From a virus, in the IMG/VR virus record IMGVR_UViG_3300043081_000027: a stretch of DNA of 64,000 nt. The stretch is one strand, 5' to 3'. Both the position numbers and the translations under genes were made by a program. Below the pieces are notes generated by a model, which was not told where the DNA came from, did no database searches, and was given only the letters and a program-made list of their open reading frames with translations. Below, piece after piece: positions 14,522 to 45,831 of the stretch. Numbering within the stretch: the stretch's first letter is position 1; every line of letters begins with the position of its first letter.

Positions 14522-15607
14522 ATGGCAGGATGTATGAATAAAAATGATAGAGGATACCAGTCGTTAAGTAGAATGGCTGGTATCCCTTCTATGGTATTAG
14601 ACGTTTATTGTCAAAAGTATTTAGATTCATTTAATAGATTACCTAACTTAGATGAATTACCCCTTGTGGATTCATCTAAGCATTTAAATGAATCTTTAAA
14701 AACAAAATAGATTGGAGATTCAAGTTTTGCTAGTAATGAAGCTATACAAAAAACTACAGGAGCACAGTCCTTAGGAGAAGCGCAAGTAAAGCTTAATAAT
14801 ACGTATAGAGATTTACAAGTAAACTTAGTGGAAGTTACAGATAAATCATCTTTACTTGAAGTATAGCATAGACCTAGTGTATTTAAAGAACTTAATCAAG
14901 AATATACAGGGGAAAATTTTGATGTTCAATCTGATACTGACAAACGTGTAGTTCTGCGAAATATGCTTGGTAAACTAAAAGATTTTTATGGCATTAAAAT
15001 TAATGAAGTTACGTCTAAACAATTATGTGAAGGTGACTTTGCTAATATAATACCAGATGCTAAAACCGCTAAAGCCTTTATTTATAATAACGAAATATAT
15101 ATAAATACGGATATTGCAGATATAGATGCACCTATACATGAATTAATGCACATATTTTTAGGTGGTATGCGCTATACTAATCCGACTATATATTTTAATT
15201 TAGTGTCTAAAGCATAGCAGTTTAAGAATTTACAAAGTCTAAGTAAGGTATATCAAGATAGAACTCAATCTGATTTTTTAGAAGAAGCTTTTGTTTCAGA
15301 GTTTTCTAAGCTTTGCGCTGGTATGCACAGTGAATTTGATTCTTGGTCTGCTGAGGATCTTAACCCGTTATTATATGAAGTCCGTAGAAATATGGACTCA
15401 GCTTTAATGGGTAATAAAAGTGTTAATAGTATTGATCCTAATGAACTTTTTAAAGCAAGTTTCTTAGATATTGCTATGCGCACAAAATCTCCTGAATTAA
15501 ATAGAAGCGATTTTAGTATTCTAAATCTCGCTGAATTACATAGACAGAATGCGAATATTAAATCTAAGATGCTAAAAGATGGTGACTTAGTTGAAAAATG
15601 TGATTAA
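14522..15607 (+). CDS. HExxH-motif protein (putative zinc metallopeptidase), 361 codons, TAG-recoded
   Basis: Frame 2; track fragments 14522..14710, 14963..15217 and 15323..15607 are joined by in-frame TAG; ends with TAA. Motif APIHELMHIFLGG at about 15137-15151. Starts 1 nt after the TAA of the RNAP gene (TAAtATG). Confidence 0.5.
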
Positions 15608-15609
15608 GT

Positions 15610-18600
15610 ATGGCTTGTAAATTTATATATAAAGGCAATAGAGTTTTTAATTCTGAAATTGCACTTGATGAGTTTCTTATTAATAGTAAGAAGTATTAGG
15701 AAGGTTCTGATATTGTATTTGAGTTAAGTACAATTTAGAAACAGCGGGGTGCTAGAATTAAACAACGTGGTAAGGCAGCTGATAAGTTAATTACTCATAA
15801 TCCTGTAATATTTGATACAGATTTATTCGAGGATTATGAAATGAATGAGTTCGGTTCTGATAACTATGGCGTTACATTCGCTCTTAAATAGTATGTAGAT
15901 GCGGAAGGTCACCCACTTTTTCCTATATTTAATCTGGAAAACTACTGGCAACATAAAATGCCAGACTGGTAGAAACAAGAATATTGGACTAAAGGTTATT
16001 AGGATGATACAGGTGAAGTACATAAATGTGATAAGTACGAGTATCAAGCTGTTTGGGGAGATAAAGATCCTAATGATATTACAGCAGCTCCTACTAATGA
16101 CTAGTTGGAAGTTGGTAAAAAAGTAATGGAGAGAGTTTGGCCTATGCAAGGTTTTATGGGTACTGGTGTACATAGAATGATTGCAGCTTATTGGAAATGC
16201 TAGACAGCTCATAAAGGTAGGGCTAGTGCTACACAAGTTAAAGCAGAAATGACCAAAGCTCTAGATTTTCAATTAATAGGAAGTGGTAATAACAATCCTT
16301 TATTATCAGAATTTAAAGGCATTAAATACTCAGATTTTCTTTCTGATAAAGTAGATGATACTTACTCAAAATGTAGAGCTATTCACGATGAACTTAATTC
16401 AAAGTTTTTAACAGATGAGTAGCGTAAATCTGGTATGGAATTGTATTTCTTACCTGAAACCGCCATTACTACAGAAGTTGATGACTTTGAACATCCCGAT
16501 AAGAAGAGAAACTTATTGGGTAATGTAGACTTATTTGTAATTGATCCGTCTGGTAACATTCACATTATTGACTACAAAACTTCACCTAAAGAATATAATG
16601 AGTACAACTCAGCTAAAATTAGAACATTCTACTATTAGTTAGCTACCTATAGACGTTTGACAGAGCGTATGGGTTTTGCATTAGACCATAATTCTAATGT
16701 GTATGTAATACCTATTAAGTTTGAAAACTTCTAGATTGATCCAGAACAAACTGATGTTACAAAGCTTTGTAAATTTGATAATCTTAAATTACGTGAGGGA
16801 AGTTCTGGTATTTTAGAGCGTTTGGAAGTTAAGGCAAGTCTTAGTTCTACAGGTGTAAACTCCGATACTATTAATAGTAACTTGGATAAAATCATTCCTA
16901 TTAAGAATACTAAAATCATGGCTGATGGTGATATTCTGGATGATGTTAAAACTTAGATGAAAGCCTGGTTTCCAAGTTTCGGTAAGTACAATGAAATTAC
17001 TAAAGAGTATGTTGTCAAGATGCTTAAACGTAAAGGTCGTGATAAGATAAATCCGAACAGTTTGAAATATACTTATAAGGTTGGTAAGAAAACTGTAATT
17101 ACTGATAGCTTTGAAGCTCTTGTAGATGGGGTATACTAGGAATATTAGAAGATGGAAGAACACGTTATGGATAGAACTTAGGGTGTTAAAACCATCTTAC
17201 AAGAAGCTATAAATAATAAGGAAAATGTAGTCATTGATACAGGATATGCTCATAGCTCTCGTAAATTTGCAAGAGAAAGTTATCTAGAAAATTTGTTAAA
17301 CCCTTATACTACTGGAGAATATGAAATCCTTGATGATTATAATGAAGCCACAGAACGTCTTGGAATAATATTACTTAAAAATATACATACCAATAAAATT
17401 GATGTATTAGTAGTAGATACTAGTAAACATGCTTTTGATGATGAAATAGCACTAGGTGGTACTGAGAATAGTCCAGGACGTAATAAGACTTTAACAGGAA
17501 CTTTTATTTCTGATGTTACTGCAAGAAATAAACCTAATGAGCTAGTACTTGATAGTACTTATGGTAATATTAGAATGATGGAAGTTATGTAGGCTTTAAA
17601 TAATATGTCTGCTTTATTTAATAGTGATTCCGCAGGAATGGAATCTACATTAGGAGAGATTAAAATGTTTAATCAATTTCATAATGATGGTTGGACAGCT
17701 TCTAATGAACAACTTCTTTACAACTTTAAAGAATTACATAAGGCTAATAAAACAGAAGACTAGATTCATTTAGGTAAGGATATAAAAATGTGTAGTTAGC
17801 TCGATCTTATTAAGCATAGGTGTAATGAGATTATGGCAAATCCAGAACATGATAGAAAATGGAATGGTATTCAAACTGCTATAGATAATACACAAAACTT
17901 TACAGTTAATCCTATTATACTTAAATCTCAGCTAATCGGATTAGCACATGACATTGAAGAGAAATTTAAGTTAAAGAATGATACTAATGCTAGAAACTTG
18001 GAAGGTGATAAAGCAGAAGCATATAGTTTCTTAGCAAACTTATATTCTGCTATTGCAGAAATTGATGGTATTCATTTTAAATAGCAAATTAAAGACCATT
18101 CTGCTTTCTTAAATTAGTCTGGTGTAAAAAGAATTTTCAAAGAGGGTTGGTCTGGAAATAGTCTTGATAATCCAGGAATGCTTGATTCTGACACCCTTAA
18201 TAAGATGGGTCAACGTCTTAATGAAGCCTACTAGCTGACTCGTGACGAGATCCAAAATATTTCAAAGAAGATTTATACATTGAGTAAAAAATTGAAGGAG
18301 GAAAACAACTTCGGATATTTGAAATCTCGAACTATCGGAAATGAAGCATCTATTTACAAAAATTTATATGATGATACTTATGAAGATGATTTAGTATTTA
18401 AAAACCCATTTGATTCTCACGGAGTAACATTGTCTGAAACTGAAAAGGAGTTTTTAAAGCAATCATTGCTTTTAATCAATCATAATCGTTATGGAGATGT
18501 AAATACTATGGATGACCTAGAATTAGCTATTATGCAGGATCCATATAAATATCTCCGAGTACCATTAACTGAGGGTACTAATGCTTCTAAAGTTGCATAT

Positions 18601-20574
18601 AAAGGTATGTGGGAAACCATTAAGGAGAAGTTTAAAAACCTTATCCCTACAAAACTTAATATGCAAAGAATGTTTAAAGGTTTGCTGGTGGATGAAACTT
18701 TATTGGATAACGAGGATGTTCGTAATAAGTATCAAAATAAGGATGCGGAACTTTGGGAAATGAATACTGCATTTGATGCTGGTGAAACTGAATAGGCTAG
18801 AAAATCCATGTTAGCTAATTATGGTAAGAATTATTTTGAGCATAATCTAGAATTACTTACCATGAAACATGCTTATGCTTATACATTAAAGAATAATATT
18901 AATAAAATATTTCCACTATTTAAAGCATGTGCTTTACAACTAGAAATGGGTGGTGCTATAATGAATACTCGTTTCGCAGAAGACATTTAGTACTTACATG
19001 ACTTTATTACTAATAAAGTACTTAATATGTCTATCTAGGATCCTAAATGGAGAACTGCTTAGTACGTATGTGGTAACTTAATGTCTGGAGCTTCTAAACT
19101 AGCATTAGCTTTTAACCCAAAACAATTTTATCAAGCTATTGATGGTTTATGGAAAGATATTTCTTTAGTGATAAGACAAAATGAATACGATCAAGCTTTC
19201 AGTCAGTAGAATATGAAAGATTCTTTCTGGTGGGTTTACAGAGATTTAACCCATAATTGGGGTGACGGTAAATCATTGGCTTAGGTTCTTAATGAATAGT
19301 ATGGTATTAATGATATGGATATGAATTCCTACATTGATAAAACTAAACCTAATCAATTTGGTATCTTTAATTTGGATAATGTAATGTTCCATTTCGCGTC
19401 ACGTCCAGACTTCTATAATAGAATGACTATTTTTGGAGCTCAGATGAGACATGATGGTTGCTTTGAAGCACACGACGAAGACGGTACATATCATTGGGAA
19501 AAAGACTTGCGCTATAATATCTATGCTAAATATTGTAAGGATGAAAGTGCTGTCCCAGCTTCTTTAAAAGCTGAATATAATAAGCAGAAAGCTCGTTATA
19601 AAGCTGCGGCTACACAATTTCAAGCAGAGGGTGCTAAATTTAAGAATTCTGATGGTGAAATGGAGGATTTTGTTGTAGACCTCTCTAATCCAAAGCCATT
19701 ACCTAGAGCGTACACAGTTAAAGAAGCTGAAAGTATTAAATCTTTAGCAGATTTAATTTATGGATATTATTCTCATGAAAAGAAATCTATGATTCAATCA
19801 ACGACTGCTGGAGCTTTATTTATGCAAATGAATACATTCTGGTCTTCTAAGAAAAACTAGTGGTTTTTACCAGGAGGAGTACGTATGTAGGGTACATATG
19901 AACATTATTCTGAAACTTAGGAAGATGGAACTAAAAAGTATTATTACCAAGATGAGAATGGTAATATTACAGATTAGGAAACGGATACACCATTCATGGT
20001 TTGGAAGGGTCGTTATTAGGAAGGAATCATGGTAACATTAGCTAATATTTTTAATGATACTTTCTATGGTGATGAAACTGGTAAGAAAGGCTTAGGTAAT
20101 GCTATTGATAAGTATTGGAACGCAACTGATGAAAACCTTCGTAATGCTTATAGAAATAATTTAAAGTAGTTACTATATGATTTATTAATGTTTCTATTCT
20201 TAGGAATGCTTATTGCACCTGCTTTAGAGAATGCTGCGAAAGCTCATGCTAAAGAAGTGGGTAATGGTGACTTAGGTGATGCTATGATAAATAATGCTAC
20301 GGTGAATTTAACTTCTATGTTATCTACATCTACAGATGATTTTAACGCACTTAAATCTATTTTTGGTAGAGGTGTACAATGGACACCATTCTCTATATCT
20401 ACACTTACAAACTCTTATTAGAGAGTAAGTTCAGCTGTATCAGGTAATAGTGATTGGTATGATGCTATTGTTAAAATGTCCGCAGCAGGAAGAACATAGG
20501 AGAATATGTTTGATTACATAAAAATAAATACACTCGGTCGAAAGATTGGAGACAATGGAGTAGTAAAAGAGGAT
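15610..20574 (+). CDS. Large late protein (1654 codons) with an internal RecB-family (Cas4-like) PD-(D/E)xK nuclease domain, TAG-recoded
   Basis: Frame 1 from ATG at 15610 to TGA at 20572-20574, only TAG in-frame where traced (15610 to about 17830 codon by codon; beyond that only the 3' end of each track fragment was checked). Nuclease motifs GNVDLFVIDPSGNIHIIDYKTS followed by FYY[TAG]LATY give the family signature QhxxY only if TAG=Q (nt about 16440-16700). A hydrophobic segment lies near the C-terminus. Confidence 0.6.
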
Positions 20575-20581
20575 TGAAAAA

Positions 20582-20627
20582 AAAATGGGCGACAACTTAG
20601 GAAAAATCCTAAGCTGCCGCCCATTTT
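20582..20627. terminator. Bidirectional intrinsic terminator at the convergence of the late (+) and early (-) modules
   Basis: Inverted repeat aaaatgggcgacaacttagg / cctaagctgccgcccatttt with a 6-nt loop. Its two mismatches are A/C on the + transcript but become G-U wobbles on the - transcript, where the hairpin is followed by nine U; the + strand has tttt after the stem. Confidence 0.55.
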
Positions 20628-22071: not shown

Positions 22072-22307
22072 ATTCTTAAATTATTTTATGTTTTTGTAAC
22101 CATGAAACTCTTGCAAAGTAAGCTTTGTTACCATACTCACTTTGTAATATTGAACTATCTATAAAGAAACAATTCTCCAAGAAACCTTCTTTAGTCATTA
22201 ATATTCCTTTTGGGTCATTAACAGGAACAAATAGATCGCAATTATTCAAATTCATTTTTCGTCTTATTAGATTATTGTAGTAGTATAAAGAATATTTATC
22301 TAAAACC

Positions 22308-24687: not shown

Positions 24688-24815
24688 GGTTATTAAAAAC
24701 TATTTTATCCATAAATTCTTTTTGTTGTTTGATGGTTTCTTTTAAATCTTTTATTGTAGTATCTTGTTTAACCATAGGATTTATTAATTGTTCCAAATGG
24801 TAAATAATTTCCGGA

Positions 24816-26748: not shown

Positions 26749-26916
26749 CTATCTTCATCGTAGAGACTAAAATATATAGCACTACAACATATTATAATAT
26801 ATGTAATTAACGTTATCATAATTTTATTTTATAATATGCCCACACTAACAAAGCAATTGGTGTTGTAAATACCCCTAATAAAAATCCTACTATAAATCCT
26901 ACCATATTTAAAGTAA

Positions 26917-28953
26917 TTAATGTATCCAATGATAACCGATTTCTGCTTCTGCTGGTATTGGAAGTTTCTTACATAGCGCCGCAGTTGCATTTTCCATACA
27001 TTCCTTTAATTTACTAAAGGCAGCATCCGCAATTTCTTTAGGAGCCTCTACAACAGCTTCATCATGTACTAAATCACATAGTAATACAGTTCCAAAATAA
27101 TTATTTTCAAGTATCCATTTAAAATACAGACTCATAGCTAACTTTAAACAAGCTATTCCAGTACCTTGTGTAGGAGAATTAAGTGCCAATCTATCCCACT
27201 TAGAAGCTGCCATATTATGCTCTGCTAATTCTGTTAAAGAATACTCTCGAATTCTTACATATTCAGGTAGATCTTCGATTGCTCGCCACTTCTTAAAGTC
27301 TTGCCAATATATTTTATGACCTGTATATTTACAAATAACTATATAACCATGAGTTCTTACAAAAGCAGAACCTTTAGCTTTAAAAGCTGCAATACCTTTA
27401 AAACCATCATTATAAGCAGCAGCAATCTCCTTAGCTTCTTGCATAGAACAACCTAAAGAATTGCTAATAGCTTTAGCAGAACCACCAAATTGTTGTGAAA
27501 ACTCTACAGGTTTAGCCTTCTTTCTAAGATCAGGTCTCAGAGCTTTAATATCCTTTACTTCAATATTAGCTAAATCTTTTGGAAAACATGCTTTTGCAGT
27601 TAGAGAATGTATATCCCCACTACCATGTAAATACTCTTCAATCATTGCAGGTTCATTGTATATATCTGCACCTAGTCTACTTTCTAGTGCTGAATAATCA
27701 CAAGAACACATTAGATTTCCAGGTTCACATACAAAGGAACTTCTAGTAGGTTCATCTGCTGGTAAGTTTTGTATTTGTACATAGCAACATCTATCGGGAG
27801 ATATATGCTTATATTTAGCTAAATCTGTGTTTTTAGACATTATACCACCTCCACAAGACATTCGTCCTGAGGAAGCACCTAATTGTTTAAATTGGGTATG
27901 TATACGTCCAGTAACAGGATTAATAGCATCTATATAAACTTTACCATAAGTAGAACAAACTTTTTGTGCACCTTTATAATCAAAATAGTGTTTAATAAAA
28001 TCATCACATATTCCCTTCTGCTTAGACAGAACACCTTCCACTATAGAATCCTTTTTACCACCAGTAATTTTATCATCTACTTTGGTATTAAATCCCAGTA
28101 AATGAACTAACTCCATTACTTGACTTGGACTATTCCAATTAATAGTAACAACAGGATCAAATTGGTCATTAAACATATTCATAGGATCATAAGAAGTAAA
28201 CTTTCTAAGAGCTTCTTTAGTTACTGATTCGTCGAGTAACCATTGATTAAGCTCCTTTAAAGATTTATTCATAGATTCTTCATCTAATTGCATCTTATGT
28301 TCCCATTTAGTAACATCCAGTTTAATACCACACCATTCCAAATAAGCTATAACAGGTACAAAAGCATTTTCTAATTTAGCTGCATTTATACAAGTTTTTT
28401 CTGAACACTCTGATAATTGTTGCTTATAAATATCTTCAAGATAAACAACATCTCCAGCAGCATATTTAATTACAGCGGGATCTAAACCTCTCCAGATGAT
28501 TTCACCTCTAGTGGTTTTATCAATGTCTACATTTAATCTTCTAAGAGCAACATCTTTAAGACTATATCTAAAGTAACGAACATCATATCCTAGATGTAAT
28601 AATTGTTCTACAATCATTGTATCCCAGCATTTTCTAGGAATGATTTTGAACTTGTATAGGAATTGAATATCAAACTTTAGATTATGCCCAATTAAGAATT
28701 TAGTTTCTAGAAGTGTTTTATAGCTTAATATATCTACAGTAGTGGTATCTACAACTATTTGAATATCAGCCTCTCTATTACCAAATTGTACACACAATAT
28801 ATCACATAAATGAGGATCTCTTCCTGAAGTTTCGGAATCAAATTGAACCGTACTCCAAGAAGAGATCATTTTTACAGAGTCTTCTACACTTAGTTTTTGG
28901 TATAAATCATCCTGCTTGAATAATTCGTCTTGTCTACTTACTAAGTATATCAT
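26917..28953 (-). CDS. Family A DNA polymerase with 3'-5' exonuclease domain
   Basis: Exo motifs FDSETSG, HNLKFD and YAAGDVVYL; polymerase motif A CDYSALESRL, motif B RKKAKPVEFSQQFGGSAKAI, motif C LVHDEAVVEAP. Confidence 0.9.
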   Translation of the reverse strand: MIYLVSRQDELFKQDDLYQKLSVEDSVKMISSWSTVQFDSETSGRDPHLCDILCVQFGNREADIQIVVDTTTVDILSYKTLLETKFLIGHNLKFDIQFLYKFKIIPRKCWDTMIVEQLLHLGYDVRYFRYSLKDVALRRLNVDIDKTTRGEIIWRGLDPAVIKYAAGDVVYLEDIYKQQLSECSEKTCINAAKLENAFVPVIAYLEWCGIKLDVTKWEHKMQLDEESMNKSLKELNQWLLDESVTKEALRKFTSYDPMNMFNDQFDPVVTINWNSPSQVMELVHLLGFNTKVDDKITGGKKDSIVEGVLSKQKGICDDFIKHYFDYKGAQKVCSTYGKVYIDAINPVTGRIHTQFKQLGASSGRMSCGGGIMSKNTDLAKYKHISPDRCCYVQIQNLPADEPTRSSFVCEPGNLMCSCDYSALESRLGADIYNEPAMIEEYLHGSGDIHSLTAKACFPKDLANIEVKDIKALRPDLRKKAKPVEFSQQFGGSAKAISNSLGCSMQEAKEIAAAYNDGFKGIAAFKAKGSAFVRTHGYIVICKYTGHKIYWQDFKKWRAIEDLPEYVRIREYSLTELAEHNMAASKWDRLALNSPTQGTGIACLKLAMSLYFKWILENNYFGTVLLCDLVHDEAVVEAPKEIADAAFSKLKECMENATAALCKKLPIPAEAEIGYHWIH

Positions 28954-29225
28954 TTATTTGAATACATTAAAGTGTCAGTCCATTCACCCCATTTATAAAC
29001 TTCAAATGTAGGTAAATTATCACCTTCATATTTTAACTCAGTTTCTGGTAAATATTCATACTCACTTATTTCATATGATATACCTTCTGACATTAGACAA
29101 TCTTCAAAATCATATAAAGCTTTACATTCTTTAGCGATTTCTTTGATCTTTTCTTCTGTTACATCATCAACATCAATTTCAACTCGCTTCCAGATTTCTA
29201 CCTTTTCATCAACACATATTTTCAT
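28950..29225 (-). CDS. hypothetical small acidic protein
   Basis: ORF; ATGA-type overlap with the polymerase gene. Confidence 0.4.
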   Translation of the reverse strand: MKICVDEKVEIWKRVEIDVDDVTEEKIKEIAKECKALYDFEDCLMSEGISYEISEYEYLPETELKYEGDNLPTFEVYKWGEWTDTLMYSNK

Positions 29226-29484
29226 CCAAGTACTCTTTTAACGAATCCATAATAGTATTAATAATATCCCAGTAATCATCATCCGATATATCATAATAAT
29301 CCTCTATAATTTCAGCTAAATAAAAATCACTATTATTATCAAGTTCATTTATAATAGATTTTTTACTTATTTCTGTACCATTATTGTCTAGTTCTTCTGT
29401 TATTCTATTAACCAATTTAGCTAAATCAATAATTGCAGATGTATAAACAAGGACAGAATAATCAACTATAATTTCAGATTTCAT
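29209..29484 (-). CDS. hypothetical small acidic protein
   Basis: ORF. Confidence 0.4.
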   Translation of the reverse strand: MKSEIIVDYSVLVYTSAIIDLAKLVNRITEELDNNGTEISKKSIINELDNNSDFYLAEIIEDYYDISDDDYWDIINTIMDSLKEYLDENMC

Positions 29485-29501
29485 AATAATTTAATTTTAA
29501 T

Positions 29502-29807
29502 TTATACTTCAAAACATTGTTCTGGTAACCAATGACCATTCTTAAATACATTACAAGCAAAGTAATCATCCCCAGGCTCTTCTGATAAACACCTAAAATA
29601 AATATCTTTAGTGCCTTCTGGGATAGCATCAAGAACTCTTTCTGGAAAATCCCAATTAGAGCAAAATTCGCCTTCTATAAAGTTTAAACTTTCATCCTCA
29701 AATGTAATTTCGTAATAAGCTAAGGATAAATCTTCAAAAGTTTGTTTCCATTGAGCTATATTTTCACTTTCTAGATAAAATCTATTTGTACATATATTTG
29801 CCATCAT
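29502..29807 (-). CDS. hypothetical protein
   Basis: ORF. Confidence 0.4.
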   Translation of the reverse strand: MMANICTNRFYLESENIAQWKQTFEDLSLAYYEITFEDESLNFIEGEFCSNWDFPERVLDAIPEGTKDIYFRCLSEEPGDDYFACNVFKNGHWLPEQCFEV

Positions 29808-30040
29808 TTTACTATTTTATAAGTTACATTTTCTTCATTCCAACCTTCTAAATCAGTTCCTGATATACCAATACCTCTAGACTGTAGAAACTTTATTAAA
29901 GTATTTATTATGTCTTTAGGCTTTTGTATATTTTCAGAATATCTCTTTAAAAAGTCTTCATCCGATTCTCCTTCATTTTGTTCAAAATAAAGGGTTCTAT
30001 TCATATTCAAGCTTACTTGAATTCCTTTATACATACTCAT
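29804..30040 (-). CDS. hypothetical protein
   Basis: ORF; ATGA overlap with the sigma gene stop. Confidence 0.4.
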   Translation of the reverse strand: MSMYKGIQVSLNMNRTLYFEQNEGESDEDFLKRYSENIQKPKDIINTLIKFLQSRGIGISGTDLEGWNEENVTYKIVK

Positions 30041-30897
30041 AACAACGCTTCAAATTTAGTTCTGTCTTTAGTTTGAAAATCCTTAATAAGTTTATGATGA
30101 ATTTGTCTAATCCTCTCAGAACTTAATGCAAACTTACGGGATATTTCATTATAATCCATTTCATTACACCCTTTAAGACCATACAGCATACAAATAATAT
30201 CATGGTCACGACTACTTAATTTCTCAAGTATTTGCGATATTCTATCTGCGATATAATTATTATTAGTAATAGCTTCTGGATTATCTGAAATTGGATTAGG
30301 AATGCAATCTCCAATAGTGCAATCTTCTGAATCATCAATACTAGGAGCATCAATACTTACACAGTTATTTGTAGAAGTTTGTACATCTCTAATCATATCC
30401 TCGGTAAATCCTGATAATTCTGAAAGTTCTTCAACAGAAGGCTCACGTTCATTTAACTGCTTAAACTTAGCTGTTAATTTATTTAGCTTAGTTTTAGGTT
30501 CTATTTGAGAAGTCGGAAGTCTTACATTATTTCCTGTATAATAAATAGATTTTAATATAGCTTGTCTAATCCACCATACAGCATAAGAAATAAATCGAAA
30601 GCCTCTTCTTTCATCAAACTTTGTAGCTGCTACAACCATTCCAGCATTTCCCTCAGCAACTAAGTCTTCCAAAGGAACACCTCTACCTTGATACTGTTTA
30701 GCAACAGTAATAACAAATCGAAGATTGGCAGATACTAATTTATTAAGAGCATTCTTATCACCCTCTCTAATTCTTTTAGCTAATTCACACTCCTCTTCTT
30801 TACTAATCATTTCAATATGACTTACATCTTTTAAATACATATTAAAAGATTCCGTATTTCTAGGGGTGATACTTTTAGTTATATTAATAGCTTTCAT
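30037..30897 (-). CDS. Sigma-70 family RNA polymerase sigma factor (regions 1.2, 2, 3 and 4; primary-sigma-like)
   Basis: Region 2 ANLRFVITVAKQYQGRGVPLEDLVAEGNAGMVVAATKFDERRGFRFISYAVWWIRQAI matches RpoD ANLRLVISIAKKY...YRRGYKFSTYATWWIRQAI; region 4.2 HTH NEISRKFALSSERIRQIHHKLIKDF. Confidence 0.85.
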   Translation of the reverse strand: MKAINITKSITPRNTESFNMYLKDVSHIEMISKEEECELAKRIREGDKNALNKLVSANLRFVITVAKQYQGRGVPLEDLVAEGNAGMVVAATKFDERRGFRFISYAVWWIRQAILKSIYYTGNNVRLPTSQIEPKTKLNKLTAKFKQLNEREPSVEELSELSGFTEDMIRDVQTSTNNCVSIDAPSIDDSEDCTIGDCIPNPISDNPEAITNNNYIADRISQILEKLSSRDHDIICMLYGLKGCNEMDYNEISRKFALSSERIRQIHHKLIKDFQTKDRTKFEALL

Positions 30898-31142
30898 TCG
30901 TTCCTATAAATTTTAGTAGTATGCCAATTATTTTTACGATATGTGTCACGTACTTGTTCTATATAATCTCTAGCTAGTGCTACACTTGCAAATTCACGTG
31001 TGCGAAGGCAAGCTGGTATATCATACGGAGTTGGGGTACACTCAAGTTTCCAACCATTCCAATGGTGACGCTCTACTAAATAACGAGCGTCACCATTATC
31101 ATTTACTTGTCTAAGTATTCTAAATTTAAGCATTATCCTCAA
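30894..31142 (-). CDS. hypothetical protein
   Basis: ORF. Confidence 0.4.
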   Translation of the reverse strand: MRIMLKFRILRQVNDNGDARYLVERHHWNGWKLECTPTPYDIPACLRTREFASVALARDYIEQVRDTYRKNNWHTTKIYRNE

Positions 31143-32502
31143 TATTTACAGAATTGTCAGCAAGTTCTTGTTTAACAAAAGCAAAACATTTTAACTTAAA
31201 AGCTTCAGAACGCATATTTTCTACCTTAATAACTAGTCCTTCATGAGGAACTTTATTATTACAACTAGGTGAAGGTTCTTCCATATAAAAATCTTTGTTA
31301 TTAGTGAGGAAATTTATAAAATTCTCACAATAACTTAGATTATCATCATAGCCATTCATACCCCAAGTAAGCTTACCAGCTTCTCCGTAGTAATATTCAG
31401 TTACTGGAATTAAACCATTATTCTTACACCATTGTTGTACTTCTTTAGCAGAAAACTCATGTACTTTACCATCCTCATTAGTTAAAGTAATTCTATATAC
31501 TCGTACTTTAAAGTTTATTTCTGGTTCGAATGATACTTTACCATTTTCATCAGTTTTTGGAGGGCAACATCCATAATCATAATTCTTCTGAATGAAATTA
31601 CCATTAGGTAAGTATCCAACTATCTCGTAATATAAGGACATACCTTTCCAGAGTTTGTCTTTAACATACTCATGTGCATACTTCCATATATCACAAGTTT
31701 CTTCAACACCTTGATATCTATTCTTAATTACATTCTTAGAAGAATATAAATATTCATAGCTTCTCCAGTTAATACACCAATCACCTATTGTATTAGATAA
31801 CCAGTTTATTAGCTTATCTCGCCAAGATAACTTGCTCTTACAAAGTAAATATGCTGACACTCCGCTAGTACCATGAATTTTCTCAGTAATACTAACTATA
31901 TCATCATAATTTACTACATAAGGACATTTTTTAATAAGGACTGTTTGATAGTGTAGTCTAAATTGTCCATCAAGGAGGAGGTCAAATCCTCCGGAATCCT
32001 TAACTTCTTTAAATTTAGATACTTGTACTTGGTTTCTTGCTTTCTTACATATCCAGATTGATCCTCCTTTAAATTCGATTGTGTCGAATTCTTTGTTTTC
32101 GTCTTTACTTGACTCATAATCACTTATAGTTGTATAATTTTGTAACCATTCTAAGAGTATCTTATACTCTATTAAAAAGCCTTCTGAAACTAAACCCTTC
32201 AATTTAATAGCAGTTACTTTACCATTATCCTCAAAGAATCCTTTCTTACTAGTATCTGCATTAAGATTAGAATGCCTATACAAGTTTGTAAATTTCAGAA
32301 AATCAGGATTAATAGTAGATAAAGTTGGAAAATATACATACAAACCAGTAGGAGAATCAACACTAACAATAACTCTATAACCATCAACAGTAGCAACCTT
32401 TAATTTAGTTACTTCGGGATTTGGATGATTAGAAAATTCTGTAATGTTAATAATCTTAGCAAGATAGTTAATATCTGCATTAGTACTTTTTATTAATTCC
32501 AT
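31126..32502 (-). CDS. ATP-dependent RNA ligase (Rnl2/Rnl5-like nucleotidyltransferase with a roughly 200-aa N-terminal extension)
   Basis: Motif I EKIHGTSG (KxHG; compare T4 Rnl2 KIHGTN), motif IV EGLVIK, motif V KLKCFAF. Confidence 0.5.
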   Translation of the reverse strand: MELIKSTNADINYLAKIINITEFSNHPNPEVTKLKVATVDGYRVIVSVDSPTGLYVYFPTLSTINPDFLKFTNLYRHSNLNADTSKKGFFEDNGKVTAIKLKGLVSEGFLIEYKILLEWLQNYTTISDYESSKDENKEFDTIEFKGGSIWICKKARNQVQVSKFKEVKDSGGFDLLLDGQFRLHYQTVLIKKCPYVVNYDDIVSITEKIHGTSGVSAYLLCKSKLSWRDKLINWLSNTIGDWCINWRSYEYLYSSKNVIKNRYQGVEETCDIWKYAHEYVKDKLWKGMSLYYEIVGYLPNGNFIQKNYDYGCCPPKTDENGKVSFEPEINFKVRVYRITLTNEDGKVHEFSAKEVQQWCKNNGLIPVTEYYYGEAGKLTWGMNGYDDNLSYCENFINFLTNNKDFYMEEPSPSCNNKVPHEGLVIKVENMRSEAFKLKCFAFVKQELADNSVNIEDNA

Positions 32503-32504
32503 AT

Positions 32505-32819
32505 TTACCCTTTATTTTCAAAGCAAAGATTATCTAGATTATAAGACGCTAAAGTATTAAACCAAGCCATATAACTTTCATCTTCCAATTCTTCTGGAGT
32601 TAGTTTATTAACATTTATGTTAACCCAATAATCATCGTTACCTTCTAAATCCTCGTACATCCCATATTCATCATGTGCATCGTCTAAGAATTCGTCTGGA
32701 TTAATATTTAACCTCTCAGTGTGTTCATCTTCTGTCATTTCAGATTCAGAATAACCTGCATAGTGTAAACTAAAACGATCATCACCGTTCAGTTCAGATG
32801 TAATAAGAAATTTATTCAT
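32505..32819 (-). CDS. hypothetical highly acidic protein
   Basis: 104-aa ORF rich in D/E. Confidence 0.4.
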   Translation of the reverse strand: MNKFLITSELNGDDRFSLHYAGYSESEMTEDEHTERLNINPDEFLDDAHDEYGMYEDLEGNDDYWVNINVNKLTPEELEDESYMAWFNTLASYNLDNLCFENKG

Positions 32820-34011
32820 AATCTCTAATAGATTTTAATACTGGTTGTAATGGAGTACCAGCATCTGAGTAATAAAAATACTTTACAGTAGCCATTTTAC
32901 CAATCAATTTATCTAAATTATCACGATATTGTTGCTTAATTTCTCTAGAACCCATAGGTTTTGCTTTAAATGGGATTCCATCGGAAGTTATTAGCTCAAA
33001 ACACATATCTTCATCACGAAGACCTTCAGATAATCCTACAATCTCGTATTCAGAATCAAAATAATGCTTGATTTTTATCATATCATTCGTGCGACCATTA
33101 GGTCTATACACTTTTTCAGGATCTCTGATAACAAGACCTTCCCAACCTTCACTTACGTATTGATCGTGTAGTTTATTCATATTATTCCAGCCAGTAACTT
33201 GTACATGAGGAACAAATTGAATAGGTAATTCACCTTCTTCAAAGTCGTAATCAGGTTGAAATTGTAAATTAAGTGTATCTCGGATTTCCATTAGAACTTT
33301 TAGACGCTCTTTAAATGTCTTAGTAGTATCTACAATATCATACAAATAATATTGTAACCAATCCATATCATAAGCATTCTTTTCCATTCTAGCGGCACCA
33401 CTAATCTGCTGCAACGACTTGCCATGTCTATATAATTCTCCGTCTAAAATTAAATTAGGATGTTCAGTAAACAATTTAACTAATCCAGGATTTTCTGTAA
33501 TATGATGAGTAGAGTAATCGTAATGCTCTCCGCCTCTGGAAGCAGTATGTATAGCCCCATCTCGGAAGTACATGAGCATTCTAACACCATCAATCTTTCT
33601 TGAAGCATACCAAACTTTATTATAGATTTTTTGATTAGTCACTTTATCAGCTTGCTTAGCAAGCATAGGTTTCATAACCCCAGCTTGATTAGTAGCTTGA
33701 TCTCCAACAATTTCACGTAATTGATCTGAAGTGTAAGTATCTGGATCATCATCTAGTTCTTTATAACCTTTATCCTTATACTCCTTGAGTTTAGAATTAA
33801 ACTGAAGTCTGGCTTGTTCTGTAACAGTTCTATTAGCTTTACCGCAAGTAATTGTAATAGGAGGTTGTTCTGTTAGTTTACCACCAAATATTCCCGTAGT
33901 TCTATTTAGAATAAATCCATGAACGTCGTCATCCCAATGAACTTCAAGTTGTACTTGTCTTATTTTATTCTTTGAGTCTATAGATACTAAATATTTATTA
34001 AGTTGATCCAT
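32812..34011 (-). CDS. ATP-dependent DNA ligase
   Basis: Motif I SRKIDGVRML (KxDGxR), motif III DGELY, motif IV EGLVIRD, motif V MIKIKH. Confidence 0.8.
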   Translation of the reverse strand: MDQLNKYLVSIDSKNKIRQVQLEVHWDDDVHGFILNRTTGIFGGKLTEQPPITITCGKANRTVTEQARLQFNSKLKEYKDKGYKELDDDPDTYTSDQLREIVGDQATNQAGVMKPMLAKQADKVTNQKIYNKVWYASRKIDGVRMLMYFRDGAIHTASRGGEHYDYSTHHITENPGLVKLFTEHPNLILDGELYRHGKSLQQISGAARMEKNAYDMDWLQYYLYDIVDTTKTFKERLKVLMEIRDTLNLQFQPDYDFEEGELPIQFVPHVQVTGWNNMNKLHDQYVSEGWEGLVIRDPEKVYRPNGRTNDMIKIKHYFDSEYEIVGLSEGLRDEDMCFELITSDGIPFKAKPMGSREIKQQYRDNLDKLIGKMATVKYFYYSDAGTPLQPVLKSIRDYE

Positions 34012-34022
34012 TATAAAATACT

Positions 34023-34331
34023 TTATGATTCTGATTCTTTTGTATCTTGTTCGTATACAGACTTAGGTACTAGTTCTATGCCGTTACCTGTAAAATCTTT
34101 TGGCAAATAAGTAAAGAATACACCTATCTTACCCTTTTGAGCAATATCAAGTATATTCTTCTTATTTTCATCAGATAAATAGCCTTCTACTAATATAGAA
34201 TAAGCAGTACGTTCTTTAATAAAGCGTTCACCTACATAAGATGTTACAGCTTTAATACAATCTGGTATTAGATCAAAGGCGTCCGTAGCTCCCGCTACGA
34301 ACACCACTTGAATAAATACTAAATCACTCAT
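34023..34331 (-). CDS. hypothetical protein
   Basis: Track ORF 34023..34469 trimmed to the internal Met (MSDLVFIQ), which overlaps the upstream stop. Confidence 0.3.
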   Translation of the reverse strand: MSDLVFIQVVFVAGATDAFDLIPDCIKAVTSYVGERFIKERTAYSILVEGYLSDENKKNILDIAQKGKIGVFFTYLPKDFTGNGIELVPKSVYEQDTKESES

Positions 34332-34581
34332 CCAATTCGTCTTCATCATAATCACCCGGTGTACCACTTTCGTCACTATACCAATCATAATCGTAGAAAA
34401 CTTTAGCATCATTGTTAAGCTCTTTACAAGAAATCCAGATGTTAGGTTTTCCAGCGTTATTACTAACAAAATTATTAATTACTTGTTTCATTTCTCTTTC
34501 AGCATCATCCTTATCAGTGGTAATGTACAAGGGGTTAGGCTCCCCATGAAACATAATTTGAACTGTATATAAAGTCATCAT
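34324..34581 (-). CDS. hypothetical acidic protein
   Basis: ORF. Confidence 0.4.
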   Translation of the reverse strand: MMTLYTVQIMFHGEPNPLYITTDKDDAEREMKQVINNFVSNNAGKPNIWISCKELNNDAKVFYDYDWYSDESGTPGDYDEDELDE

Positions 34582-34611
34582 AATTTTAAATTTTATTAAA
34601 TTAATCTTTTA

Positions 34612-34815
34612 TTACCAATCATAACTTTTAATATTTTTATTTACTTTATGGTACTTAAAATTATGGTTAGCAATTATACATTCTAATAAATAATTTTCAA
34701 CATCTCCATCTCTAAGATAAAAATTAATAATATTAAATATATAATCTTTATTTTTAGAGTTGAAATGTTGACCTGTAGAATGTATAAATTGATAAAAGAA
34801 ATCTTCTGCCGTCAT
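34612..34815 (-). CDS. hypothetical protein
   Basis: ORF. Confidence 0.35.
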   Translation of the reverse strand: MTAEDFFYQFIHSTGQHFNSKNKDYIFNIINFYLRDGDVENYLLECIIANHNFKYHKVNKNIKSYDW

Positions 34816-35000
34816 TTATCCCCAGTATGTCCGAAACCTCCAGCACCTCTTGTAGTTTCATCAAGTGAATTTACAGGAACCCACTGAATCTTAGAAACTT
34901 GCTCTAAAGTAATTTGAGCTATACGATCTCCATGACGTACTACAAAATTATTATCAGGATCAGTATTTATTAAAATAACTCCAATTTCACCGCGATAATC
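34812..35000 (-). CDS. dut: dUTPase, exon 2 (C-terminal half: DYRGE ... RIAQI ... TTRGAGGFGHTG)
   Basis: Carries dUTPase motifs 4 and 5; in the same frame as exon 1. Confidence 0.75.
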   Translation of the reverse strand, partial: DYRGEIGVILINTDPDNNFVVRHGDRIAQITLEQVSKIQWVPVNSLDETTRGAGGFGHTGDK

Positions 35001-36092
35001 CATTTATGTTATCCTAAAGACTCTTTATTCTTTAGTTCTGCAGTTTCATTAGTTATATCTGCAGGTCGGACTATATCTTCTCCAACAATATTTATAATTT
35101 GTTGGAGCAGGGCACTCGTGGTAGCATTACTATCCTCGCTAAGGACTCGGCTACTAGTCTCTGAACCTTCAAGAGTATTACTACTCAAGCTTGGCTGCTG
35201 ATTGTCCACCTCTGGAGTTTCCAGCAATTCACCCTGTTTTAAGACGCCAATTATCGCTTTATATTTTTCAGATCGTTCATGTGCTTTAGTATTATGGTAT
35301 GTAGTATGTTCAGAACGTGTTAGTATTTGAAGATTTTCTAAACGATTGTCTGTTTTTATTTCATTTATATGATGCACATCATATTCATCTTTTAGAACAA
35401 TCCATCCATTAACATTCTCAAAATACTTAGGATCAAACTTATCATGATTTCTTTCAATTACTAATCTATGCTGTCTAACTCTAGATCCTTGAACACTTTT
35501 ATCACAGGGTTTTGGATGTCCTGGACAATACTCTAACACGTAACCTAAATTAGAAATTGTTTCTTTACCCTTAAAACTTGCATTTTTATCACCAGTAAGT
35601 CCATATTGATGATTATTTTCTCCTAAATATGTAGTTTCTCTTAATTTGTTACTACATTCTTTACTACAACAAATTTGCGTTTTAACTTTTTTTATTCTAC
35701 TAGGTTTCGCATAGAATTGGTTACCGCAAATAGGGCAAGTACAATTTAACTCAGTCTTTTTTCTAAATAAAGCTGAGCAAGTAGTGCTACAACATTGATA
35801 GGTCTTTGCACGACTCGGAGTAACGTATTCTATTTTACCACAATAAGCACATATTACTTCTATTTTATCTACAGCATTCTTTTCATTCGGTTTTCCTTTA
35901 CTGTGTTCATCCGAACATTGTTTACAACAATATTTTCGATGAGCACTTTTCTTTCCTAAGAAAGTTTTTCCACAATTTAAACAAATATATTCTACCATAC
36001 TAATTTTTTTAATATGGTTAAATATAGACAATTTTATTGGAATAACCTAATAAAAATAATAAATTGTGTAGTAACTGTTAATATATAATTTT
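35001..36092 (-). mobile_element. Probable group I intron (1092 nt) splitting the dUTPase gene inside motif 3, carrying an HNH homing-endonuclease ORF
   Basis: Exon 1 ends ...PGCIDA and exon 2 begins DYRGE, reconstructing G-x-ID-x-DYRG. The upstream exon ends with U, the insert ends with G (omega-G), and in-frame read-through from exon 1 hits TAA after 5 codons. Confidence 0.6.
35009..36031 (-). CDS. HNH homing endonuclease with N-terminal zinc-ribbon repeats (intron-encoded)
   Basis: Four CxxC...CC(S/K) ribbons, then HNH core DVHHINEIKTDNRLENLQILTRSEH. Confidence 0.75.
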   Translation of the reverse strand: MSIFNHIKKISMVEYICLNCGKTFLGKKSAHRKYCCKQCSDEHSKGKPNEKNAVDKIEVICAYCGKIEYVTPSRAKTYQCCSTTCSALFRKKTELNCTCPICGNQFYAKPSRIKKVKTQICCSKECSNKLRETTYLGENNHQYGLTGDKNASFKGKETISNLGYVLEYCPGHPKPCDKSVQGSRVRQHRLVIERNHDKFDPKYFENVNGWIVLKDEYDVHHINEIKTDNRLENLQILTRSEHTTYHNTKAHERSEKYKAIIGVLKQGELLETPEVDNQQPSLSSNTLEGSETSSRVLSEDSNATTSALLQQIINIVGEDIVRPADITNETAELKNKESLG

Positions 36093-36422
36093 AGCGTCTA
36101 TACAACCTGGCGTGTTAAGAACAGTTATACCGTGTTTAAGAGCTAATCCGCTACGAGGTCTTACTTTTATTTCATAACCTTCTGGAATTGCAACGAATAA
36201 ACCAGTAGGAATAAGTGCTCTACCTCCGGGACGGATAACCACAGCACCACCTTCTGTATAAAATTGATTATCTAAGATACAATCAACTCCTTTAACATTA
36301 AGTATTCCATGAATATCTGCTCGCACATCCATACCAGCAGAACCATCGGTTTCATAACTAGGAAGTGGATTATTCCATTGTTCATCATAATATTGCTTTT
36401 GCTTTACTTTTACTTCTACCAT
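36093..36422 (-). CDS. dut: dUTPase, exon 1 (N-terminal half: motifs 1-3 up to GCIDA)
   Basis: [18 protein letters not shown] and PGCIDA; track ORF 36078..36422 runs 5 codons into the intron before TAA. Confidence 0.75.
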
Positions 36423-42446: not shown

Positions 42447-42633
42447 AGTCGTGCTCTTCTACGTATTCTTTCATACCTTGTATAACAGTTTCTGACATAA
42501 AAGTTTGCCCTACTAACAAGCCATGTAAAGCTTCTAGTATATCAGTAACTGAACAATCTTCGTAAGCACTTTCCCATGAAAACTTATTACTACCTATTTC
42601 TAGTGTTAATTTAGTCTTTCTATCCTCGTTCAT
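42433..42633 (-). CDS. hypothetical protein
   Basis: ORF; ATGA overlap with the nrdD stop. Confidence 0.4.
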   Translation of the reverse strand: MNEDRKTKLTLEIGSNKFSWESAYEDCSVTDILEALHGLLVGQTFMSETVIQGMKEYVEEHDYELS

Positions 42634-45600
42634 AGTTCTTTTATATGTTTAACTCGTTGTTCGACCTCCTGTTGCTTACCAACGTTAAATGACGTCTTGT
42701 AGTCTCCGGTTAAATAACCTGTTACACGGCGTAATCGCTTGATATTTTTACTACCACACATAGGACAAGTATCATTCAATTCATCAATATAACCACAGTC
42801 TTGACAAGAATCATTTGGTACATTAATGGCAAAGTATGGAATATCATGATCCATTGCATAATTAACAATCTCTTCAATAGCTTCTGGATTATGCTTAGTA
42901 GAAGCAGGTAATTCAACATAAGTTATACAACCTGCACTACTGAAACCAGTAAGTTGTGATTCAATTTCAATTTTCTCAAATGGAGTACATTCATGCCATA
43001 CAGGTACGTGCATACTATTAGTAAAGAAATCACGTTCTGTAATTCCTGGAACTTCACCAAATTGCTTCTTAAATTTCTGCATTGCTGTGTAACACAAATT
43101 TTCAGCAGGAGTATAATAAACACCAAAATTAAGTTTATAAGCTTCTTTGAATTCACTGCACCTCTTCTTAAAGAGAGCTTCTAATTCTTTAGCTTTATCC
43201 ATAATTTCTGAATCAGTATGGTCTTTACCGAAAATAATTCTCAAAGCTTCTGATAATCCTAATTGACCAATAGCTAAAGTACCATGTTTTAATGCTGAAC
43301 GAATACCTTCTTCAGGTTTATATCCATACATTACATTATTTTGATACATAAACTTAGCTGATGCAGCATCTTGACTACATATCCAATCAAATCGTTCAAT
43401 TAGCATATCTTTTGCTTCATGAATCTTAGTATCCAACAATTCAATAAATTTATTCCATACTAAATCCTTGATATTTATATCTGCATTATCCATATTAGAT
43501 ATAGCTTGCAGTTTAGAATTCATTGCAAGTGTAGGAAGTATGATTGTAACAGGACAGATATTACCTCTACCATCTTTAAGTTGACCAAAACCATTAATAT
43601 CCCAGCCATTCGCTGTCCTGCATCCCATTGTACTAAAATAAGTGCGAGGATCGTTTATATCATACCCTTCATTACCAGACCAATCTACATTGGCATAATT
43701 AGGGTATAACCTAAGACTCGTAACCTTAGTAGCTTCTTGGAATATATCATAATTCGGATCTCCAGGTTTTCGATTAACACCTTTCATTAATTGAACGATA
43801 CAGCACGGAAAAATCGGAGTGCTATGATGGCTACCAATACCATTCTTACTTACTTCAAGTAAAGCTAGACTAATAAGACGTCCTTCAGGTTGTGTACAAG
43901 TACCATAATTAATAGAAGTGAATGGTAATTGATTACCACTTCTACTTTGTAAAGTATTTAAATTATGATACATACCTTCAACAGCTTGATGAATTTCTCG
44001 TTTAGTCATATCCAAAGCATATTCATAAGAATTGGGATGCTCTTTATACAAACTATCCTCTATAGACAAATCTGTTTGATCATACTTCTCATTACGAATA
44101 TGGTCAATATACTTCAATCCAGTTCTGTAGTGCTTATTAAAAGATAGTCTTACATAAGGAACCATAGTCCAATCTAGATGAGTTGCAGACACACCACCAA
44201 ATTGTTGTAAACTTTGTACTTGGAATATTACAGCTAATAATTGAAATGCTGTATTAACACTCTTAGCAGGTCTAACATCAGTTTGCTTTAGCTTAAACCC
44301 GTTAGTAAGTAAGTCGTCTACTGGTATGCTCAAACAGTTTCCTGTTACCATACATCCAGCCAAAGTAAAACTGTGAGTTTCTGGAGCTTCAACACACCAA
44401 GTTACTTGTACAGATCCAGCCGTTATTTTATCTAACCGCCATGGTTTATTTTCTTGCTGTTTAACACATAGTTGAAAATCATAATAAGTAACATCTTCTT
44501 TGTAATTAGTAGATTTTACATGCTCTCTTTTCGACCAAACATGAAACCCTGCAAGAGGTGCGGCAAATTCAATAAATTCTGCTAATCTACTATCAGTTGT
44601 AGAAATAGTATTATTTGCTTTACACCCATCTGCTGAAAAATAGCCTAAGAAAATACTAGCAATAGCATTTTTATCTAGAATATTCCAAAATTTACCTTCA
44701 AGAAAATTTTGTTTATAAGATCCATTACCTCTAGTATGAAGAGTAATATCTCCATTACTATGATGTTGTCGAATACTATAACCAGCTTTTAAGAAATTAC
44801 CCAAGTATTCTACTTTATCGGAACATAGTCTTACATTCATTCCACTGTTTGTAATTCTACTTTTATCTTTAGAATACATAAAGTAATCACAACCATCGCC
44901 TAATACAAATCCAAAACACCATAAAGTATTGTCTAATATAAAATCAGTTGTACTTACAGGCGTTAATATTAGTTTATCACCAACTTGTATATTATCAGTA
45001 ATATCCCCATTACTTAAAATCCATCTATGATTTCTAGTACAGGTGACAGTTTTCTTAGTAATTCCAGCACTAAACTCTAAAGTGTACATTTTTTGTTTCT
45101 CATATTGATGTACCGTAGCAAATTCCCAATCTCCATTTTTATTTAGAATTTCTACAGGTTGACCGTCTGTAAAACTGTCAAAAGTTCTTACACCTCTAGA
45201 AGTTACAAACTTAGTATCATGGCTATAACAGTTGTGCATCCCCACAGCGTAAGAATCCAAATCATGAATGTATATTTCATTATTTTCATGATTATGCTTA
45301 GCCATTTCAGACATACAATAATTAAGAGCATAATCTTTAGTTACAACTCTACCTGCTTCACCAATACGTCCACCAAATGAATGCTCGTCAATATTAGCAT
45401 TTTGATTTTTTACATTAGAAGCTTCAAGTTTAGATTTAATGCCTTTAATGAGTTTATCTTTTTCAGCACGAAGCATCTTACGTTCTTCTCTATAAAGAAT
45501 ATAAGCTTTAGCTACATCTGGAAAATCATAATCCATTAAAAGCTCTTCAACCTGATCTTGTATATCCTCAATATTAATCTCATCCCAAGTTTGTACTTCA

Positions 45601-45728: not shown

Positions 45729-45831
45729 AAGTTTATTGTAGTTTATTAATTATTTCGAGCAAATAGAATTAAAATTAACCATTTAAAGGTTAACTTCAAA
45801 ACTATTCATAGCTCTTAAATTAGTATTCTAC

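Follow-up and report, generated by a model that had tools for sequence, protein, structure and literature searches.

The 64,000-nucleotide (nt) stretch of viral DNA analysed here in full, IMG/VR record IMGVR_UViG_3300043081_000027 (hereafter the window), carries on its minus strand, at positions 30037–30897, a gene that we confirmed to encode a complete sigma-70-family protein. Considering the evidence as a whole, the best explanation is that this protein is probably a functional phage sigma factor, captured from the primary sigma factor (sigmaA/RpoD) of a Bacteroidota host, that redirects host RNA polymerase (RNAP) to phage promoters. Observations in support of this reading include the presence of all four conserved sigma regions in a matching fold, the invariance of functional residues, the shared gene order around homologues that are only 48–63% identical, and a consistent residue pattern at the position equivalent to Escherichia coli R584. 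Binding to the core enzyme, timing of expression and promoter specificity are what we infer for the protein from these observations.

A complete sigma-70-family gene conserved in related phages

The open reading frame (ORF) was divided into the conserved sigma regions by profile matching, with the following result (aa, amino acids).

30037–30897, minus strand: phage sigma-70-family gene, 286 aa, ATG start, TGA stop
30754–30846, minus strand: region 1.2, aa 18–48; Pfam PF00140 (Sigma70_r1_2), 39 bits against a gathering score of 22
30547–30738, minus strand: region 2, aa 54–117; PF04542 (Sigma70_r2), 60.4 bits against 24
30499–30543, minus strand: region 3.0 segment, aa 119–133, rebuilt in the window's clade
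30274–30489, minus strand: region 3 including the 3.2 linker, aa 137–208; PF04539 (Sigma70_r3), 35.4 bits against 25.3
30091–30228, minus strand: region 4 with the 4.2 helix-turn-helix, aa 224–269; PF04545 (Sigma70_r4), 32.4 bits against 24.1

The preliminary description of this DNA had called the gene a full-length sigma-70-family factor with regions 1.2, 2.1–2.4, 3 and 4.2, and the analysis bore this out: every region scores above its Pfam cutoff, including region 4, whose truncation had been named there as a finding that would speak against the claim. By this domain content the protein is primary-like (groups 1/2). Group 4 sigma factors lack regions 1.2 and 3, and group 3 factors lack region 1. 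The term full length is used here in the sense of a Bacteroidota primary sigma, which naturally has no region 1.1; the Bacteroides primary sigma reads promoters with −33/−7 elements, the latter of the form TANNTTTGY (PMC12632263). Bacteroidota primary sigma factors such as Bacteroides fragilis sigmaA have the same length of 286 aa and the same layout, and are 41–47% identical to the phage protein.

The sigma protein aligns end to end with the RpoD/RpoS models of NCBIfam at about 200 bits, far below all equivalog cutoffs; the best RpoD equivalog score was 209.5 bits against a cutoff of 572 (NF006666), which does not qualify the protein as an RpoD orthologue. PHROG 351, annotated 'RNA polymerase sigma factor', matches it at 2.8e-58. 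Assignment to MzaA of the MZA anti-phage system was considered and rejected, the match (196 bits against an equivalog cutoff of 800) being limited to the common sigma domains. An AlphaFold2 model built with 53 homologues reached a mean pLDDT of 74.6 and was low only at the N-terminus and in the 3.2 linker. When this model was compared with the PDB using Foldseek, every top match was a primary sigmaA/sigma70 or a sigmaS chain from an RNA polymerase complex, with alignments of approximately 270–330 columns and E values of 1e-17 to 1e-13. No second sigma-like ORF was found in the 64-kb window in either genetic code.

We then assessed conservation of the gene. At least four samples yielded the identical sigma protein, on 13 contigs in total, and in each case its gene lay between an RNA-ligase-like gene and the gene for DNA polymerase A (PolA); loci in this look-up were retrieved by exact protein identity and the count is accordingly biased toward identical proteins, as is the figure of 7–8 synonymous changes by which the variants among them differ. 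Homologues of 48–70% identity lie in the same replication module, consisting of a Pif1/Dda helicase, dUTPase, DNA ligase, the RNA-ligase-like gene, sigma and PolA, on many phage contigs of 100–190 kb. These include homologues on a 164.5-kb contig (P0011) and a 186-kb contig (P0028) at 60–63% identity to the window sigma, and two further ones (P0058 and P0074) at 48–49%. A 47%-identical homologue, P0094, is a true bacterial rpoD, with dnaN, argS and PFOR as neighbours. At least 560 IMG/VR viral stretches encode sigma relatives; among the best 80 of these relatives, those adjoining ligase, RNA-ligase or PolA come mostly from contigs of 115–190 kb.

In GTDB species genomes, the closest matches were all Bacteroidota RpoD proteins of the same length at a flat 41–46% identity, a plateau spanning Bacteroidales, Flavobacteriales, Chitinophagales and Sphingobacteriales. 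GTDB bacterial species genomes contained no phage-type sigma copy and no copy more than 46% identical, and no near-identical DNA was found in GenBank phages. These results bear directly on the possibility that the gene is misassembled bacterial DNA or a decaying recent capture, that is, an artefact or non-functional passenger. Such an origin would agree with the finding that the closest cellular relatives are Bacteroidota RpoD proteins of equal length. Against it, the ORF is intact and overlaps both neighbouring phage ORFs by 4 nt (ATGA), its functional residues are invariant, the same context recurs on many independent contigs, and no copy above the 46% ceiling exists in any bacterial species genome searched. 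The preliminary description had named a recent host fragment without conservation in related phages as a refuting outcome; the gene is instead conserved and syntenic in them, and synteny and conservation together refute the artefact or passenger interpretation, to which we assign a negligible probability.

A phylogenetic comparison with Bacteroidota SigA had been suggested in the preliminary description. In a neighbour-joining tree rooted on E. coli RpoD, two deep phage clades are basal to a monophyletic Bacteroidota RpoD clade (67% bootstrap), so that the phage copy, besides sitting in a replication gene run, differs from Bacteroidota sigmaA in branching outside the RpoD clade. Monophyly of all phage sigmas received 52% bootstrap, and the tree alone does not separate one capture from several. 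Shared synteny favours one capture, and tree and synteny together are most simply read as a single ancient capture from a Bacteroidota host, after which the gene was long retained. The only deposited relative is an unannotated 121.6-kb human-gut 'Bacteriophage sp.' (GenBank MT835492.1, locus L091), which carries a 39%-identical sigma adjoining PolA and a giant ORF with the RNAP catalytic block described below (48% identity over the block); it is probably a third, deeper branch of the same lineage.

DNA-contacting residues and the search for promoters

Residues were compared across 32 phage and 74 Bacteroidota sequences, using E. coli numbering. N383, R385, D403, Y430, W433, W434, Q437, R451, E585, R586, R588 and Q589 are invariant in both phage and Bacteroidota proteins. 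Three more positions are near-invariant in the phages: E407 (one phage exception), N409 (30 of 32) and R436 (29 of 32, with Lys in the other three). This conserved set covers the core-binding helix of region 2.2 and the residues for −10 reading and melting.

Elsewhere the phage copy differs from Bacteroidota sigmaA, namely at R584, in region 3.0, on the region 4.2 surface and in the C-terminal tail. In the window sigma, Ser260 (nt 30118–30120) replaces the R584 equivalent in region 4.2. Position 584 is Arg or Lys in 73 of the 74 Bacteroidota sequences and Ser, Gly or Ala in every one of the 32 phage sequences (Fisher p = 2.5e-26, without correction for phylogeny), and in further syntenic IMG/VR loci it is mostly Ser, Gly, Thr, Asn, Cys or His. 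In E. coli, R584 contacts a base of the −35 hexamer. Other changes are found only in the window's clade. In region 3.0, the 'AEQSRI' of bacteria is replaced by 'YYT(A/G)N(N/D)' ('YYTGNN' in the window), the H455 position is Ser where bacteria have Asn, and the E458 position is occupied by Glu133, as in E. coli, in place of the Gly present in 74 of 74 Bacteroidota sequences; E. coli E458 contacts the TG of the extended −10 element. The segment at aa 118–136 is 91% conserved among Bacteroidota, and the window protein is 26% identical to it, compared with 67% in region 2. The 591–598 face of region 4.2 and the C-terminal tail are also replaced in this clade. In E. coli sigma70, this face is a surface that contacts activators and anti-sigma factors.

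Promoter motifs were sought in the window and in intergenic gaps pooled from 20 related loci. Neither set was enriched in the host −7 motif TAnnTTTG (window, 92 matches against 95 expected; pooled gaps, 0.86 against 0.78 per kb), so that ordinary host-sigmaA promoters do not predominate in the block examined. A scan for E. coli-type −35/−10 pairs in the window returned 71 sites, fewer than the 89 in shuffled sequence. K-mer enrichment across 152 gaps from the 20 related loci yielded AT-rich words only and nothing coherent; the k-mer TTGGACAA was rejected as a promoter, since it reflects homologous sequence. One gap lies directly upstream of the gene run that contains the sigma gene.

34470–34611, minus strand: 142-nt gap upstream of a 12-ORF run, candidate promoter region

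An E. coli-type TTGAAA-16-TATAAT is present just upstream of this gap, at 34700–34673, as a single match that is not significant. Separately, the window contains three exact copies of the 10-mer ACTACAATAA (22272–22281, 24751–24760 and 45733–45742, minus strand), all of them on the coding strand inside minus-strand intergenic gaps. Allowing one mismatch, 20 occurrences were counted against 15.5 expected, which is not significant, and ACTACAATAA is a weak candidate for a regulatory word. The search for an anti-sigma factor near the gene, also proposed in the preliminary description, came back empty: no anti-sigma and no conserved small partner was found among the sigma neighbours, none of the neighbours examined for such a role being conserved across loci or having a Pfam match above cutoff.

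In the main rival explanation, the protein would be a sigmaA substitute of unchanged specificity, an extra or replacement housekeeping sigma for host-type promoters on phage DNA. Depletion or sequestration of host sigmaA, or its inhibition by a phage anti-sigma, would leave host RNAP still active for the phage. The altered region 4.2 surface of the window's clade would then provide immunity to control and not a new DNA specificity. This is compatible with −10 residues in regions 2.3/2.4 that are as in the host, with the retention of E585, R586, R588 and Q589, with the changed 591–598 surface, and with the primary-sigma-like middle promoters of the crAss-like phage phi14:2. It fits poorly with the lack of enrichment of the host −7 motif in intergenic gaps, with two DNA-proximal changes, the R584 side chain being consistently lost and region 3.0 rebuilt, and with the absence of an anti-sigma candidate or of any small neighbour conserved across loci. 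On balance, we consider a substitute of this kind possible though rather unlikely.

The predicted RNA polymerase of the phage, TAG recoding and gene order

The window consists of two convergent blocks, one on the plus strand (1–20577) and one on the minus strand (20.6–64 kb), with the following principal features besides the sigma gene.

1–20577, plus strand: TAG-recoded giant-gene block, ORFs of >905, 3921, ~361 and 1655 aa
2755–14520, plus strand: predicted crAss-type RNA polymerase protein, 3921-aa ORF with 79 in-frame TAG codons
10192–10353, plus strand: catalytic block VLAARIPAQ...GSDYDIDKVSLLGF, with DYDID at 10318–10332
20582–20627, between the convergent blocks: hairpin whose 20-bp stem (9 G-C pairs) precedes a T run
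26816–34469, minus strand: 12 co-directional ORFs with overlaps or gaps of ≤17 nt
26917–28953, minus strand: DNA polymerase A, best matches all Crassvirales
31126–32502, minus strand: RNA-ligase-like gene, 458 aa, the most consistently conserved sigma neighbour in related phages
32812–34011, minus strand: ATP-dependent DNA ligase, a conserved sigma neighbour

The preliminary description had stated that the phage also carries its own RNAP, and the 3921-aa ORF with its crAss-type catalytic block agrees with that statement. As a whole, the ORF has no PHROG, Pfam-level or PDB match (PDB searched by single sequence and by profile) and few relatives in large protein and viral collections, the homologue searches having given only three. 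Among the relatives the block has the consensus VLAARIPAQxxQSFMxMKVxGFDxxGLNxAYVSRxQxWLQGSD[YLF]DIDK. When this block, taken as 109 aa, was compared with 50,697 phage records at relaxed thresholds, 40 records matched, approximately 30 of them Crassvirales, and the informatively annotated ones are named 'putative RNA polymerase', 'putative RNAP' or 'putative RNAP catalytic subunit'. The block could be aligned to the RNAP genes of Kolpuevirus, Rudgehvirus, cr85_1 and cr7_1 (Steigviridae, Intestiviridae, Suoliviridae) with a single one-residue gap, giving the common pattern [AY]R[IV]P[AT][QE]..S...M.V..F...G.[ST]..V...GSD[FY]D[IV]DK; it represents the DFDxD catalytic signature described for crAss-like RNAPs (10.1101/2020.03.07.982082; PMC7886860). 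A structure model of one relative (P0121) had a pLDDT of 43.5 and was unusable. The conserved active-site motif and the genome context support the prediction that the phage encodes a crAss-type RNAP. As a side observation, the called RNAP protein of P0121 stops inside the catalytic motif ('...LQGSDF', followed by unrelated residues), in line with a published comment that in Zeta phages the RNAP gene is frequently interrupted within DxDxD.

The presence of both genes in one genome raises the alternative that the sigma partners the phage's own RNAP instead of the host enzyme. The conserved sigma residues, however, are those that touch the cellular core enzyme, and the crAss-type RNAP is a single giant polypeptide that has only the catalytic barrel motifs in common with cellular RNAP; in phi14:2 it appears to initiate on its own. 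A partnership of this kind is therefore very improbable.

The plus-strand block has almost no long ORFs in the standard code and is readable only when TAG is decoded as an amino acid. Its ORFs contain 132 TAG codons in frame, are free of internal TGA and TAA, and end in TAA or TGA. Where the alignment with standard-code relatives is good, the residue opposite TAG is most often Gln. In the minus-strand block, TAG ends 8 of 77 ORFs and 2 of the 47 that are at least 100 aa long. No tRNA gene, and hence no suppressor tRNA, was found within the 64-kb window. Among the RNAP relatives, L089 is TAG-recoded (54 in-frame TAG codons) and L090 uses the standard code, which means that the code changes within the lineage. 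The 1655-aa recoded ORF (15610–20577, plus strand) has a PD-(D/E)XK nuclease domain (PF12705, 30.4 bits) and is the counterpart, by length and location, of the 'exonuclease V' gene beside the RNAP gene of Zeta phage Lera. The ~361-aa ORF (14522–15607, plus strand) has a HELMH motif of the HExxH type and no Pfam match. The hairpin at 20582–20627 is probably a terminator for one or both blocks.

The sigma gene lies in the standard-code minus-strand block, as the sixth ORF of the packed run at 26816–34469. The order of this run is a 148-aa ORF, DNA ligase, a 104-aa ORF, the RNA-ligase-like gene, an 82-aa ORF, sigma, four small ORFs, DNA polymerase A and a 37-aa ORF, flanked by gaps at 34470–34611 and 26749–26815, and it is likely to be one transcription unit. 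Since it shares the run with DNA ligase and PolA, the sigma is most likely produced alongside the replication proteins and in the standard code. PolA matches include Kolpuevirus (47.5%), IAS virus, the cr1xx exemplars and crAss001 (35%). The minus-strand block also encodes Dda-like and DnaB-like helicases, NrdD, ThyX and dUTPase.

This position is relevant to another explanation, in which the protein acts mainly on host genes and shifts host physiology to favour infection. Phage sigmas acting on host regulons are known, as has been proposed for the sporulation-type sigmas of Bacillus phages (PMC9429907), and the window protein is so near to host sigmaA that it could read some host promoters. 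It derives, however, from a housekeeping sigma and not from an alternative sigma with a defined regulon, and its gene sits inside a replication gene run beside DNA polymerase, not in a moron-like position. We therefore regard a mainly host-reprogramming role as quite unlikely.

Three further observations were made in the minus-strand block. The NrdD-like anaerobic ribonucleotide reductase (42630–45728, minus strand; 1032 aa) matches its PHROG only from about residue 461 and has a long N-terminal extension. A full-length group I intron (Rfam RF00028, 70.3 bits, 35038–35323, within 34812–36422 on the minus strand) overlaps a 340-aa HNH endonuclease ORF (35009–36031) and splits the dUTPase gene precisely: exon 1 (36078–36422) covers Pfam profile positions 24–70 and exon 2 (34812–35003) covers positions 71–129. 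At 51200–52200 (minus strand), a coding-looking region with a repeated 'GAATTTT..CA..C.GA' and Cys-rich motifs, interrupted by TAG and other stops, may be a recoded or decaying mobile endonuclease gene.

Large genomes, late-gene recoding, a group I intron and an RNA ligase gene are features of the Zeta crAss-like group (PMC7886860, PMC12386605). The window matches them in its recoding, its intron and its RNA ligase, and the sigma is found on 115–138 kb contigs, with relatives on contigs of up to about 190 kb. The crAss-type PolA, the TAG recoding, the group I intron and the contig sizes lend indirect support to a placement of the phage as crAss-like and probably of Zeta type; TerL, the major capsid protein and the portal lie outside the 64-kb window.

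A proposed transcriptional role and its significance

In the mechanism that we propose, an ancestor of the Zeta-type crAss-like lineage would have captured the primary sigma factor (sigmaA/RpoD) of its Bacteroidota host. The phage sigma would join the host RNAP core, and the resulting holoenzyme would initiate at phage promoters. These promoters would probably keep a host-like −10/−7 element and differ in their upstream parts, because the residues that read the −35/−33 element and the extended −10 region are changed; the −33 element may be different or dispensable, and an extended −10 contact is possible. The phage sigma would then take over or bias the middle/late transcription step. In phi14:2, one crAss-like phage that has been studied experimentally, the virion RNAP transcribes the early genes without a recognisable promoter motif, and middle and late genes are transcribed by rifampicin-sensitive host RNAP from promoters of the primary-sigma type (bioRxiv 10.1101/2020.03.07.982082). 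Because host RNAP transcribes the middle and late genes there, a middle/late role for the phage sigma is the most likely one.

Several points weigh against this mechanism. For the −10 element the phage sigma has the same reading residues as the host protein, and it might do no more than recognise host-type promoters. Two syntenic loci have Lys at position 584. The annotation of Zeta phage Lera lists no sigma, which may mean that the gene is dispensable in some sublineages. No promoter motif in the window or in the pooled related gaps could be assigned to the sigma, so that the redirection to phage promoters and the three-tier transcription programme put forward in the preliminary description gained no support from this direction, and the recoded late block in the window is nearly without intergenic DNA in which promoters could be sought. 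A three-tier programme would nevertheless be a reasonable hypothesis. More tentatively, and with less confidence than in the redirection itself, we suggest that the Zeta-type lineage might use a private class of promoters, read by the host core with the phage sigma, in which a host-like −10/−7 element is combined with a novel extended −10 contact while the −33 element is changed or missing. The sigma, made from the standard-code replication genes, would on this suggestion be the middle-to-late switch that turns on the TAG-recoded virion genes.

Phage-encoded sigma factors have long been known, so no new principle is involved; SPO1 gp28/gp34 and T4 gp55, for example, redirect host RNAP. Together with phiEco32 gp36 and the sporulation-like sigmas of Bacillus phages (PMC12276001, PMC8948821, PMC9429907), these proteins are functional analogues of the proposed role, as phage-encoded specificity subunits for the host core. 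They are diverged, often minimal and of alternative type, whereas the window sigma is a full primary-type factor including region 1.2; phiEco32 also has a partner, gp79, of which no equivalent was found among the neighbours of the window sigma. Full-length sigma-70-type ORFs are present in other large phage genomes, namely as rpoD in Microcystis phage MaAM05 and Acinetobacter phage MD-2021a and in the Prevotella Lak megaphages. These are 26–36% identical to the window sigma, belong to unrelated phage lineages, and seem either to have been acquired independently from other host phyla or to be related at a much deeper level. Phages phi14:2 and coliphage N4 use a virion RNAP for early genes and host RNAP later (N4: PMC13434306). 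No sigma has been described for phi14:2, unlike the window phage, and N4 has a second phage RNAP and an SSB activator in place of a sigma.

The preliminary description had considered the combination of a sigma factor with a phage RNAP unusual for crAss-like phages. This stood for the well-studied groups, since the classical Crassvirales genomes in GenBank are absent among the tblastn sigma matches listed. It did not hold for the lineage examined here, where, as the IMG/VR relatives counted above and the literature (PMC13503771) indicate, the sigma is a regular gene of the replication module. That literature is a 2026 mouse gut virome study whose list of Zeta-enriched annotations includes 'an RNAP sigma factor' and RNA ligase (PMC13503771); the presence of the sigma is thus already visible in annotation pipelines, and it is not mentioned in the text or supplements of the two main Zeta-group papers. 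What appears to be undescribed is that the gene derives from Bacteroidota sigmaA, that it has a constant position within the replication module, and that residues contacting DNA are changed throughout the lineage.

A conserved, host-derived sigma of primary type is a concrete, clonable candidate for the middle/late switch of an abundant gut phage lineage. The loss of R584 and the rebuilt region 3.0 lead to testable predictions on promoter recognition by Bacteroidota RNA polymerase, and the phage sigma could serve as an orthogonal sigma for Bacteroides engineering. If the lineage does use a private class of promoters, a single phage would couple the reprogramming of transcription with that of translation.

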